A stretch of DNA of 45,879 nucleotides, taken from a virus. The notes under the pieces are model-generated. The model was not told the DNA's origin. It saw nothing but the letters and a program-made list of their open reading frames with translations, and did not search any database. This document shows positions 2,964-9,807 of this stretch, piece after piece. Positions within the stretch are counted from its first letter, which is position 1. Every line of letters begins with the position of its first letter. The translations under genes and the position numbers were made by a program. The stretch lies in UHGV virus genome UHGV-0132371, one strand, 5' to 3'.

Positions 2964-3311
2964 TCACTCCCCCTTCACGCCAATGCCAGCGGCTACAAGT
3001 TCTGCGGTGTTGGCATCCTGCTGTCGGCAGTCGCATTCAATCTCAATCGGCTCGCCCCATGGCTGCGTGCCGCCACTATCAGTCATTCCTGTGTCGTTGC
3101 ATTTCGGGCATGGTTTTTCCTCAAGCGCATTCAGCAACATACGGATCTCATGTTGTTGTGCTGCTATCGTTGAGTCTTTGGCTTCCAACTCATCCAGCAG
3201 CGCCTCCGCCTCGATGTAAATCACCTGCCGATCGTGGTCTGCCGGGTCGCTATAGTTGTCCTGCATGAACTGGAATTCTTCACGCAGCGCCTGTTTGTTG
3301 AGTGCTGTCAT
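2964..3311 (-). CDS. Ead/Ea22-like protein
   Basis: 115 aa; coiled-coil N-terminus and C-terminal CPKC...ECDC cysteine cluster typical of Ead/Ea22-like proteins. Confidence 0.5.
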   Translation of the reverse strand: MTALNKQALREEFQFMQDNYSDPADHDRQVIYIEAEALLDELEAKDSTIAAQQHEIRMLLNALEEKPCPKCNDTGMTDSGGTQPWGEPIEIECDCRQQDANTAELVAAGIGVKGE

Positions 3312-3562
3312 TGGGCTGCTCCTTGTCTGGCTCTGCTCAAGAGCTGGTTAAACATCATGGTTAGGCTGTTACTGCAACCAAACGGCATATCGTTAATGCG
3401 GTATGTTGGAATACCCTTGCGAACACCAGACTTCACGATCCGACCGGTGCCATAGAGCTGAGATAATGCTCCGGCGACCGCTGGGGTCTTTTTGTTCATA
3501 CCTTTGGCGATTTCACCGCTGGTGGTATTCGGATGAGCCTGGAGATATTCAAATACGGTCAT
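3308..3562 (-). CDS. Small winged-helix DNA-binding protein (putative)
   Basis: 84 aa; start overlaps the upstream stop (ATGA); predicted HTH-like segment. Confidence 0.45.
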   Translation of the reverse strand: MTVFEYLQAHPNTTSGEIAKGMNKKTPAVAGALSQLYGTGRIVKSGVRKGIPTYRINDMPFGCSNSLTMMFNQLLSRARQGAAQ

Positions 3563-4370: not shown

Positions 4371-5288
4371 TTATCGCTTGGCTTCGCCGCCGAGAGAGGT
4401 TGTTAATCCGTTAATGAGAGAGATAAGCTCGCCGGTCATCAGAACAAAGTCAGCGTCGAACCGCTGAGCCGCATCCTCACGGTCGATATCGTCGTTTTGT
4501 TCTGTAATCTCATTAGAGAACTTAAGGCGTTTGATGCTGCCGTCATCGCAAAGAACGAACTGAATGCGCTGTTGCCAGTCGATAGACAGCTTTGTAACTA
4601 CTTTGCCAGCTTCCAGATGCACATGAATTTCGTCACTGACCAGAGTCTGTTTTTTAAAGCGTCCAATACCGCCATCTTCAAGAATAGCTTTCAGTTCGGC
4701 TTCATCACCCAGGCCAAAGCCAGCAGGCGCACTACCGGAACGAACCCATTCGGTCATAGTTAGTTCGATCGGCGTTTCCATAGTCAGCGGTACCACCGGG
4801 AGAGAACCGAGAGTTTTACGAAGCAGGGCCAGTGAGTCTTCGGCACGTTTAGCGCTGGCTGCATCAACCATGATCAGACCGTCGGTGACGTTGATCCACA
4901 AACTAACAGTCGAGTTTTTGGAGAACGCCCGAGGAAGCAGGGAGTGCAACACTTCATCACGCAGCGAATCTTTCTCAGTTTTTTTGAGGCGACGCCCCTG
5001 ATCGGATTCCAGACGCGACACACGCTTGCGCAGTTCTTCAGCAATGACAGGAGATGGCAGTATTTTTTCTTCCCGGCGAATAACCAACAACACTTGATTA
5101 TTGACAGTGTGATGCAAGCGATCTGACAGCTGACCAAGTGGTGATACCCAACCGGTTTTTGCCATATCCTGGCTACCGCATGGAGTGAAGCGAAATAGTT
5201 CAAGCTGCTGTTCCAGCTCTTCCTGGTTGATGGTGAAATCGCGACTAATGCGATACACCAACATATTTTTGAAAAACGGATTGTTCAT
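4371..5288 (-). CDS. rdgC: Recombination-associated protein RdgC homolog
   Basis: 305 aa, alignable by eye along its whole length with E. coli RdgC ([11 protein letters not shown]..., [37 protein letters not shown]). Confidence 0.85.
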
Positions 5289-5340
5289 TCTCGGTTCCTC
5301 AACGCCTCTGCACCGGCGCTAAAAAGTTAGTTTCTCCATA

Positions 5341-5452
5341 CACAACAGAGAAGGGCACCTGCATTGGTCGGCGGCTTGCAGAGACCGCTTTCTTTTTGCC
5401 CGGGTGGATTGGGTTATGAGCCCGTCGCCCGGTGATGCCCTTTTCTGTTGTG
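5341..5452 (-). other. Long imperfect hairpin (16 of 18 bp stem, about 76 nt enclosed) in the leader between the first early-left gene and rdgC
   Basis: CACAACAGAGAAGGGCAC at 5341-5358 pairs with ATGCCCTTTTCTGTTGTG at 5435-5452; GC-rich interior with further self-complementarity. Confidence 0.4.
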
Positions 5453-5600
5453 CCCTGAAAAAGGCTGGCGGTTACCGGAAATACACGGGAAAACACCGGG
5501 CCGCCAGAACAGGGAGTTACTTGTTATTGCTTTAGCCTGCTTTTAACCACATCAGGCGCGGTGGTATCTTGGTGTTCTCACACAACCAAGAGGGATGTTT

Positions 5601-5798
5601 ATGGGCGCTTTTGATAACCAGGAAATTACGTTACCCGCATGCCCTAAGTGCGGCACTAAGACGAAGAAGAAAATCGCTTGGCTCAAGTCGAACAAAAGTT
5701 TCACTTGTCGATGTGGAGCTACTATCAATGTCAACAGCAGCCAGCTTACTTCCGAAATCAGGATGGTTGAGGACAAGCTGAAGAAGCTCTTTAAATAG
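5601..5798 (+). CDS. Small zinc-ribbon protein (CPKCG...CRCG), antisense to the early-left gene
   Basis: AGAGGGA RBS, possible TGnTATCTT promoter upstream, hairpin plus T-run downstream; but it overlaps the minus-strand ORF 5631..5996, so it may be a shadow frame. Confidence 0.35.
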   Translation: MGAFDNQEITLPACPKCGTKTKKKIAWLKSNKSFTCRCGATINVNSSQLTSEIRMVEDKLKKLFK

Positions 5799-5996
5799 TT
5801 TTTTATCGACTGATATTATTTCGTTATCAGAGGTTGGTTTTTCAGCCTCTGATTTTTTAGTCAGGATCATTTTTTCTACACATGTGACTACGCATTCCGA
5901 ACAGATGGCAGGTTCGTCCTTACCACCTTTTGCGACGATCTTTATCGCTCCCAGTTCGGTTGCTCCGCAAAATGAGCATGTGAATAAATGATTCAT
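5631..5996 (-). CDS. ClpX-type zinc-finger protein, first gene of the leftward early operon
   Basis: N-terminus LFTCSFCG...(x19)...ICSECV..C closely matches the ClpX N-terminal zinc-binding domain; GAGG RBS before the ATG at 5996. Confidence 0.5.
   Translation of the reverse strand: MNHLFTCSFCGATELGAIKIVAKGGKDEPAICSECVVTCVEKMILTKKSEAEKPTSDNEIISVDKKLFKELLQLVLNHPDFGSKLAAVDIDSSSTSTSETFVRLEPSDFLLRLSAALRACG
5826..5859 (+). terminator. Possible hairpin terminator after the plus-strand small ORF
   Basis: ATCAGAGG...CCTCTGAT inverted repeat followed by TTTTTT; large loop, so weak. Confidence 0.3.
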
Positions 5997-6014
5997 GTAA
6001 ACCTCTACCCCCAA

Positions 6015-6252
6015 CCTAAGTTTTCTGTCAGCGAATCATCCGGTTATTCATATGCCACCGGCGGCTACTTCGTGGGCGTCCTGCCTGTTCGCTGTTGATG
6101 AATACATAATTAACCAATGGCTAATATTTGTAAACAACCAATAGTTAATTTTTGAGTGTTTAGGAATTAACTCAATGATTTTTAATAAAATATATTTTGT
6201 TGTTAAGTGATGACGTGCTTAAAAAAAACACCATCTACAAAAGAGGAGTGTT
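6015..6252. promoter_or_regulatory. AT-rich intergenic region; candidate early-left promoter/operator and promoter of the plus-strand small gene
   Basis: Very AT-rich with repeated GTTAAT/ATTAAC half-site-like motifs also present in the cI-cro intergenic region. Confidence 0.3.
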
Positions 6253-7838: not shown

Positions 7839-7921
7839 TAGTTAAATATCCGGGAACTTGACTTTGCTGTCAGTTAATATTTATTATTAACTTGTGGTTA
7901 ATTTTGTAATCAGGAGAGTCA
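7839..7921. promoter_or_regulatory. Divergent immunity promoter/operator region (PRM/PR-like)
   Basis: 83 bp AT-rich spacer between divergent cI and cro-like genes containing GTTAATATTTATTATTAAC and TTAACTTGTGGTTAAT dyads. Confidence 0.5.
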
Positions 7922-9538: not shown

Positions 9539-9620
9539 GCTTTATTCCAGGTATACACTGTCTCGGCAGCGGCAAAATCCGTTGCCGGGATTGGCGTCCT
9601 GGAATTGATTAAAGAGCACA

Positions 9621-9642
9621 ACCGCGCTCTGGCGGTTTTTTT
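9621..9642 (+). terminator. Possible weak intrinsic terminator (tR1-like)
   Basis: Short ACCGC...GCGGT stem followed by TTTTTTT. Confidence 0.3.
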
Positions 9643-9807
9643 GTGCGAAATGCATTGCTACACCCTGATTATGGTGGGGCGTGCAGGGGCATCGAAAGAT
9701 GCGCCGGCTTCTTTAGTCACCGGTTACGCCAACCCTGCACGTCTCACCACCAATGAGATTGGCGTCTCTTGTGGTGAGTTGTTAAAACTGACTAAAGAGG
9801 CAGCCAT

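Follow-up and report, generated by a model that had tools for sequence, protein, structure and literature searches.

What does a large, GC-rich hairpin do in a stretch of viral DNA that appears to code for nothing? The question is raised by positions 5289-5600 of the virus genome UHGV-0132371, whose whole stretch of 45,879 nucleotides is referred to here as the window. A first-pass annotation, made from the sequence letters, placed this hairpin in the early-left leader upstream of rdgC and offered for it a processing or attenuation site, a nut-like element, a small RNA, or an unrecognized recombination site. The rdgC gene (4371-5288, minus strand) is confirmed by its Pfam RdgC match (E = 8e-116), and in an E. 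coli O68:H12 prophage with 100% identity RefSeq leaves the gap without annotation. Upstream of the gap lie a ClpX-zinc-finger-like ORF (5631-5996, minus strand), a second conserved RNA close to PL (6030-6095), and the PL region itself (~6100-6200); the ORF and the PL region make the gap intergenic within the leftward operon. The hairpin does stand on the rdgC side of the leftward transcript, as proposed, but not in its first bases.

Fold of the Element in the Window

The large imperfect hairpin itself is borne out. Its inverted-repeat arms (5341-5357 and 5436-5452) are 17 nt long, 94% complementary, and separated by a spacer of 78 nt, and the minus-strand segment 5322-5470 has a minimum free energy (MFE) of -57 kcal/mol (z = -3.95), a value equaled by none of 200 shuffled sequences. 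Folding of the full gap gives z values of -3.4 for the minus strand and -3.6 for the plus strand. As minus-strand RNA, the basal stem (P1) comprises 19 bp with one mismatch and one G·U pair, and it encloses a GC-rich branched core. On these folding models the element is a three-way junction RNA of the window minus strand, consisting of the basal helix P1, an arm P2, and a variable arm P3 (Table 1), and it therefore has the same sense as the leftward operon. Both folds and alignment indicate that pairing of the upstream terminator U-tract with the GGAGA of GGAGAAAC can lengthen P1 to ~26 bp.

Table 1. Parts of the element and its neighbors on the window minus strand, with copies of the short form in other phages
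Feature	Position	Strand	Description and basis
Hairpin B	5465..5507	-	Stem CUGGCGG...CCGCCAG, then CC and a U-run; intrinsic-terminator-like, directly 5′ of the element; read from sequence
Terminator U-tract	5458..5462	-	Can pair with GGAGA(AA) at 5331-5337 after read-through, extending P1; MFE folds
P1 5′ arm	5434..5452	-	CACAACAGAAAAGGGCAUC; fold, inverted repeat
P2 arm	5400..5432	-	CCGGG / CGAC / GGG[CUCAUAA]CCC / AAUCCA / CCCGG; folds
Anticodon-stem-loop-like tip	5411..5423	-	GGGCUCAUAACCC; three G-C pairs and loop CUCAUAA; single site in the window
P3 variable arm	5361..5399	-	39 nt here; 14-17 nt in SfV-type relatives
P1 3′ arm	5341..5359	-	GGUGCCCUUCUCUGUUGUG; fold, inverted repeat, alignment A1
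GGAGAAAC	5330..5337	-	Directly 3′ of P1; nearly invariant in alignment A1
Hairpin D	5302..5319	-	GCGCC GGUGCAGA GGCGU; UGCA/GGCA-type loop, just before the rdgC Shine-Dalgarno sequence
rdgC Shine-Dalgarno sequence	5296-5300	-	GAGGA, ahead of the start codon at 5286-5288
Short-form copies	L101 12006-12060; L004 2476-2543; L007 104-187		After tR′/isrJ-like terminators or phage tRNA-Asn/Arg, before holin

Conservation and Covariation

A 55-nt core of the element (5398-5452) is ~91% conserved by BLAST in SfV, SfII, SfIV, mEp460, cdtI, ST64B, and Stx2a/Stx2c phages, and it is present in 2831 of 5426 complete E. coli genomes. We scanned IMG/VR with this core, which yielded more than 90 distinct copies among the matches listed; with an anchor made of the P1 3′ arm and GGAGAAAC, which is independent of the loop; and with a two-G-C variant of the loop stem, the three scans together giving well over 100 distinct copies among the matches listed. 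A wider scan of genome contigs with a loose pattern gave 119 chance matches among the 120 listed. If the assignment holds, the element represents an unrecognized RNA family in more than half of sequenced E. coli genomes, which extends to phages of Shigella, Salmonella, Citrobacter, and Klebsiella, including Stx2-converting phages, a range measured within phage and E. coli collections.

The copies share a common order, which runs from 5′ to 3′ through a GC hairpin with a U-run, P1, P2, P3, the P1 3′ arm, GGAGAAAC, a hairpin with a UGCA/GGCA loop, a Shine-Dalgarno sequence, and the first gene. P2 has the general form CCGGR / internal loop / GGG[CUCAUAA]CCC / AAUCCA / YCCGG, and P3 is variable in both sequence and length. 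At the place of hairpin D the folds of relatives also contain a hairpin, with differing stems and a recurring GCAG.

We aligned 77 distinct relatives (alignment A1; 35 pairs, 2693 cells), for which RNAalifold returns P1 and P2 together with the P3 base. Bases are paired in 98.1% of the cells, and sliding the 3′ partners by 1-3 columns lowers this to 44-56%, although the members are closely related enterobacterial phages and such cell counts overstate the number of independent events. Compensatory change is found in 11 of the 35 pairs, spread over several helices and several lineages, and none of 500 shuffles reaches the observed values. Among these pairs, 24/135 is A-U in 37 sequences and C-G in 34, 29/130 is G-C in 55 and C-G in 21, 46/70 in P2 is A-U in 35 and G-C in 32, and 79/114, which closes P3, is G-C in 58, A-U in 12, and U-A in three. 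Helix 2 of the alignment, corresponding to P1, is 99.3% paired with compensatory change in 5 of its 17 pairs, and columns 13-18 pair with columns 138-144, the U-tract/GGAGA pairing, in 97% of cases, mostly as U·G and U-A.

The strand on which the structure acts can be read from its wobble pairs. In the alignment, G·U cells number 309 and A·C cells 17, so that 98% of cells pair when read as the minus strand and 87% when read as the other strand; a G·U pair also occurs in the loop stem of the Klebsiella phages. This excess means that the element pairs as minus-strand RNA, and it excludes a DNA cruciform and an opposite-strand transcript, removing the recombination site from the list of proposed roles. 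Folding and covariance analysis across relatives, the check that the first-pass annotation had suggested, thus found the pairing kept through compensatory changes rather than lost, in agreement with its description of a structured element in the leftward transcript. We consider the element very probably a selected RNA structure of that transcript.

Coding explanations fail on the same comparison. The minus-strand ORF 5299..5496 (65 codons), already suspected of being spurious, is broken by indels between relatives, whose core lengths fall at 61-66 or 84-88 nt and differ by amounts that are not multiples of three; these breaks also dispose of a degraded ORF. A plus-strand ORF starting from the ATG opposite the CAU of the loop changes frame between the GGG and GG loop-stem subfamilies. 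A mini-ORF reading GUG/AUG-GAG-AAA after P1 is inconsistent in length and stop codon, and has no Shine-Dalgarno sequence.

Position at the Head of the Early-Left Operon

By script, 71 of the 77 relatives have a hairpin and a run of at least four U residues immediately 5′ of the element, a number that rises to ~75 of 77 once four others had been reread; the terminator stem sequences differ between relatives. Attenuation or termination does not fit the large hairpin, after which there is no U-run on either strand, the adjoining sequence being UAUGGAGAAAC in the minus-strand reading and CCCTGAAAAAGG in the plus-strand reading; hairpin B, the separate structure directly 5′, does qualify as a terminator. 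The element is found 10-150 nt ahead of the first early-left gene, and in SfV, mEp460, and the Stx2a phage the core lies just upstream of this gene in the leftward sense. The gene itself varies, being Sb37/SfV-orf32-like, one of several diverged RdgC, a YfbR-like nucleotidase, or others, and the element thus belongs to the operon and not to one gene.

L091 (2081-2227, minus strand) is an exception: an operator/promoter-like sequence (TTGCGTTTATCGCAA...), and not a terminator, abuts P1, which would place the element at the very start of that transcript. ST64B (L126) has at 3270-3375 (minus strand), upstream of its true element, an extra terminator and a long P1-like hairpin (CAACAGAUAAGAGUU...AACUCUUAUCGUUG) that carries no tRNA-like arm, and a similar P1-like hairpin is present in SfV. 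These hairpins of ST64B and SfV suggest that P1 can exist as a module apart from the P2/P3 insert.

A Short Form in Late Operons

We further find a short form of the element, ~55-70 nt in size, in which P1 is reduced to 6-7 bp and P3 is small, and which has the same P2 tip and internal loop. The matches listed include ~25 real distinct short forms (31 script matches, of which ~6 are artifacts). The short-form P1 is 100% paired, with three compensatory pairs; long and short forms placed in one alignment are not structurally consistent. Both forms occur in L101, where the late region reads Q-like gene, PR′, terminator, isrJ-like RNA (Rfam, 29 bits), terminator, element, and holin, and in L007 the short form precedes holin, lysozyme, and Rz. 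If these assignments are correct, the element marks the entry to both lytic operons.

In Klebsiella phages, the short form follows tRNA-Asn/Arg genes at tRNA-like spacing and ends in RCCA, a tail that is not conserved outside the Klebsiella group. The "tRNA-Arg/Asn" label found over a Klebsiella match belongs to the neighboring true tRNAs and not to the element. As a separate observation, holins behind the short form (in L296, L375, L101 at ~12170, and L327) have a dual-start motif, UAUGAAAAUG or UAUGAAGAUG, whose UAUGA is complementary to the UCAUA of the loop.

The Tip Loop and Initiator tRNA

All 13 bases of the P2 tip, GGGCUCAUAACCC, agree with the anticodon stem-loop of E. coli tRNA-fMet, the A38-C39 step among them; this tRNA sequence was confirmed in each of 5426 E. 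coli genomes. The conservation of the loop was measured on 51 distinct elements picked by P1 and GGAGAAAC only, 50 of which are real, and all 50 keep the 7-nt loop and its CAU. Position 32 varies among C, U, and G, whereas 33 is U in all but one element, which has C; 37 takes either A or U, and 38 either A or C. Many copies, most of them short forms, close the loop with two G-C pairs instead of three. In view of this two-G-C subfamily and of the varying loop neighbors, the strongest constraint is on the CAU in an anticodon-type loop and on the flanking GAC...AAUC internal loop, not on every initiator feature. The likeness to tRNA-fMet spans 11-13 nt and could be a convergence on a stable U-turn loop; we regard the chances for and against a specific role of the loop as evenly balanced.

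Comparison with Known RNA Classes

A gathering-score scan of the whole window with Rfam 15 retrieved only isrK and C4, so that the Rfam search proposed with the hairpin returned no family at the element. Relaxing the threshold to E values up to 10 gave only chance-level matches in the region 5100-5900 and no tRNA-model match at the element in five short-form loci, and ARAGORN called no tRNA in the window, nor any at the element in L001-L005. A full-text search retrieved no paper containing an 18-nt core string. As far as tested, with no Rfam family and no paper carrying the core string, the element has not been described previously.

The resemblance to tRNA is local. The element and tRNA-fMet share a 7-nt loop with U33-type geometry, the CAU, and three closing G-C pairs (features all present in GGGCUCAUAACCC, the subfamily having two of the pairs), but in the element an internal loop, not a tRNA stem, lies below those pairs. 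The cloverleaf is rejected, since there is no D or T arm and no form is recognized by ARAGORN or by the Rfam tRNA model. An acceptor stem with CCA is likewise rejected for the window copy, in which the 19-bp P1 is followed by UAUGGAGAAAC; RCCA together with a 6-7-bp stem occurs only in the short forms of Klebsiella phages. The short form is the more tRNA-like in its size of ~55-70 nt, its tRNA-like spacing after tRNA genes, and the RCCA of the Klebsiella-phage group, whereas the long form, with a basal helix of 19-26 bp and no CCA, is unlike a tRNA. Other tRNA-like RNAs include the thrS operator and the C4 RNAs of P1/P7 and CI RNA of P4, which are processed by RNase P.

A closer structural parallel is the leader of lambda N, where a hairpin between nutL and N serves as an RNase III processing site. 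Folded for comparison, this leader comprises nutL, a three-way hairpin of ~120 nt with a long CA/GU basal stem, GGAGAA, and N. Both leaders thus have in the PL transcript, downstream of the antitermination site and close ahead of the first gene, a hairpin of ~110-120 nt in which a long CA-rich/GU-rich basal stem surrounds two smaller hairpins and is followed by GGAGAA. They have no sequence similarity, however, and the inner arms of lambda carry no anticodon-like loop; GGAGAA is the Shine-Dalgarno sequence of N in lambda, whereas no start codon follows it at the element; and a terminator directly before the hairpin and a late version with a short stem are features of the element and not of the lambda leader. 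The geometry of an RNase III-type site, a large hairpin whose basal double-stranded RNA spans some two turns or more, is also present, with a P1 of 19 bp that can be extended to ~26 bp and a location between the PL-proximal RNA and the first gene. By this analogy, the element probably works most like the lambda N-leader RNase III hairpin.

The small RNAs of enterobacterial prophages (IsrK, IsrJ, C4, AgvB/AsxR, and the Pas sRNAs) are, like the element, prophage-borne, conserved, and located near PL or PR′ control regions, and an isrJ-like RNA lies directly upstream of the short form. They are short primary transcripts with their own terminators, in contrast to the element, which starts after a terminator and has none. 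AgvB/AsxR are convergent sRNAs of 51-60 nt located 3′ of PR′ morons, and the AgvB/AsxR anti-sRNAs and Pas sRNAs differ from the element in size, place, and orientation. Pairing of the tip loop with the hairpin loop of the PL leader is inconsistent across phages.

Proposed Mechanism and Alternatives

We view the element, a conserved module that lambdoid phages transcribe in cis, as a leader RNA or processing structure of phages that carries an unusual arm resembling tRNA; among the roles originally listed for the hairpin, a processing site and a small RNA appear the most plausible. Our best reading combines the two in a processed leader module that releases or presents the tRNA-like arm, and we put it forward tentatively, as a composite that falls just short of an even chance. 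The position of the element behind a terminator implies that it would be made only in lytic read-through, that is, on antiterminated transcripts. In the long form, RNase III would cut the 19-26-bp P1 as it does in the lambda N leader, with which the layout is shared. Such cleavage would part the coding mRNA from a leader laden with terminators, would free GGAGAAAC from its pairing with the terminator U-tract, and would release an RNA of ~70-95 nt comprising P2 and P3. The short form, which adjoins tRNA genes and often has an RCCA-like tail, would instead be released by tRNA-processing enzymes. Its P1 of 6-7 bp is not an RNase III substrate, and processing by one enzyme thus cannot be the function that the two forms share. 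The released or exposed P2 arm would then engage a reader of the CAU loop, candidates being the start codon/30S P site, MetRS, and an anticodon nuclease. Processing of the element, taken by itself, is a real possibility to which we give somewhat less than even weight. If the reading is correct, the element offers a testable handle on how N-less lambdoid phages organize long, terminator-laden leaders, and a partner for the tRNA-fMet-like arm would represent a new type of tRNA mimicry in phage-host conflict or translation control.

The simplest alternative is a plain processing or insulating hairpin, which would provide an RNase III site, keep the leader off the first ribosome-binding site, or shield it from Rho. 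Its architecture matches that of the lambda N-leader hairpin, P1 is long and well paired, and the sequences are closely related. On this view the loop would have no specific partner and would be conserved through a stable U-turn and recent common ancestry. This fits poorly with the late form, whose P1 is down to 6 bp but whose P2 tip and internal loop are almost unchanged, and with a CAU that is invariant while positions 32, 33, 37, and 38, P1, P2a, and P3 vary. We consider the plain hairpin unlikely, although still a serious competitor, and give the same weight to its account of the loop.

At the other extreme, the arm could act in trans. VapC toxins that cleave tRNA-fMet are common on enterobacterial plasmids. 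A minimal mimic of the initiator-tRNA anticodon arm, carried on lytic transcripts and excised by RNase III or tRNA-processing enzymes early in lytic growth, could serve as a decoy or competitor against a VapC-type anticodon nuclease, MetRS, or the 30S P site. The 13/13 identity of the tip favors such a decoy, enteric VapC toxins cleave tRNA-fMet within this same anticodon stem-loop (review, PMC7180214), and phage tRNAs are argued to counter tRNA-targeting defenses (PMC10264068). In addition, the hosts are Shigella, Salmonella, E. coli, and Klebsiella, and the short form is roughly tRNA-sized, lies in tRNA clusters, and has an RCCA end. Many copies, however, have two G-C pairs or altered positions 37/38, D and T arms are absent, and a decoy would need tRNA-like abundance; both the decoy and its excision in this manner seem improbable to us. 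If true, they would amount to an RNA-based counter-defense or translation-control device in about half of E. coli genomes.

Alternatively, the loop could act in cis as a translational operator, pairing with the start region of the first gene (UCAU/AUGA, often UCAUA/UAUGA), including that of dual-start holins, and thereby timing or tuning initiation. YUNR U-turns are typical of antisense recognition loops, and the loop carries one (CUCA); the distance from the element to the first start codon downstream is always 10-150 nt, and the holins after the short form begin UAUGAAAAUG or UAUGAAGAUG. Yet AUG alone is universally complementary to the loop, first genes starting AUGAA, AUGAG, AUGGC, AUGCA, or AUGUU, and TTATGAG, considered also as a target of the loop in trans, is as frequent in the window as expected by chance and does not coincide with gene starts. 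An operator of this kind is, in our judgment, quite improbable.

A role in processive antitermination of the leftward operon, through a nut- or put-like site, is very improbable. A nut site consists of boxA (CGCUCUUA) and a boxB hairpin with a GNRA-like pentaloop, upstream of terminators, in a phage that has an N protein. The element does belong to the early-left leader of phages without a recognizable N. It has neither boxA nor boxB: GCUCAUAAC resembles boxA, but only the CAU is invariant, and the P3 loops are not conserved. Its place downstream of one or more terminators, and the occurrence of a version in Q-dependent late operons, further contradict the nut-like element first suggested. The put RNA of HK022 is a cis-acting antiterminator made of two adjacent stem-loops (PMC9378689), and the element, also a leader RNA of N-less lambdoid phages, offers P2 and P3 as two adjacent stem-loops. 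But put, a double stem-loop of ~70 nt, directly follows its promoter, upstream of the terminators that it overrides, whereas the element comes after terminators; no likeness to HK022 putL is seen by eye, and the nutL/putL position is filled by the separate RNA described below.

Finally, a coding remnant or small ORF on either strand, or a DNA site such as a cruciform, recombination site, or origin, is scarcely credible: reading frames are open on either strand, a hypothetical protein is annotated here in some phage records, and the invariant CAU is an ATG on the other strand, but the core length differences and the plus-strand frame shift break these frames, the compensatory changes span arms of which one lies outside any such ORF, and the excess of G·U over A·C is incompatible with a cruciform or the other strand.

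A Second Conserved RNA Near PL and Other Features of the Window

The second conserved RNA of the leftward transcript, GCGAACAGGCAGGACGCCCACGAAGUAGCCGCCGGUGGCAUAUGAAUAACCGGAUGAUUCGC (6030-6095, minus strand), is present as a single copy in the window. It starts ~10-15 nt after the -10 box of PL, behind several visibly unrelated operator sets, and lies 318-1481 nt upstream of the element. Among 54 distinct sequences its 5′ half is near-invariant; the hairpin pair 42/68 is U-A in 16, G-C in 27, and C-G in 10, and the closing stem switches between A-U and G-C. Because it occupies the nutL/putL position, this RNA is the better positional analogue of put, and we regard it as a candidate cis antiterminator, a better candidate read-through determinant than the element, and a candidate for the missing antitermination site of these phages.

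The rightward early region contains the two RNAs that exceed the Rfam gathering score, isrK (9566-9642, plus strand, 74.6 bits) and the adjoining C4 antisense RNA (9667-9754, plus strand, 81.2 bits). Between the gap and the PL-proximal RNA, ORFs on opposite strands overlap at 5595-6014 and can hardly both be real as drawn. The ClpX-C4-zinc-finger-like ORF at 5631-5996 (minus strand) has a Pfam match (E = 8e-6) and is annotated by RefSeq in the identical prophage; on the plus strand, a Lar-like zinc-ribbon ORF (5601-5798) is followed by a strong terminator at 5826-5853. A conserved box at 5535-5590 with the hairpin ACCAC-N10-GUGGU (minus-strand sequence GAUACCACCGCGCCUGAUGUGGU) recurs in SfV (L001, ~2795-2830), Cronobacter phage phiES15, and K-12-like genomes, and could be a promoter/operator for the plus-strand ORF or another leader structure. 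Operator-like palindromes of the form AGTTAAT...ATTAACT lie at 6144-6172, left of the repressor block, and at 7872-7895, between the repressor and cro-like genes; judged by sequence, they are consistent with OL/PL at ~6100-6200 and OR at ~7860-7900.
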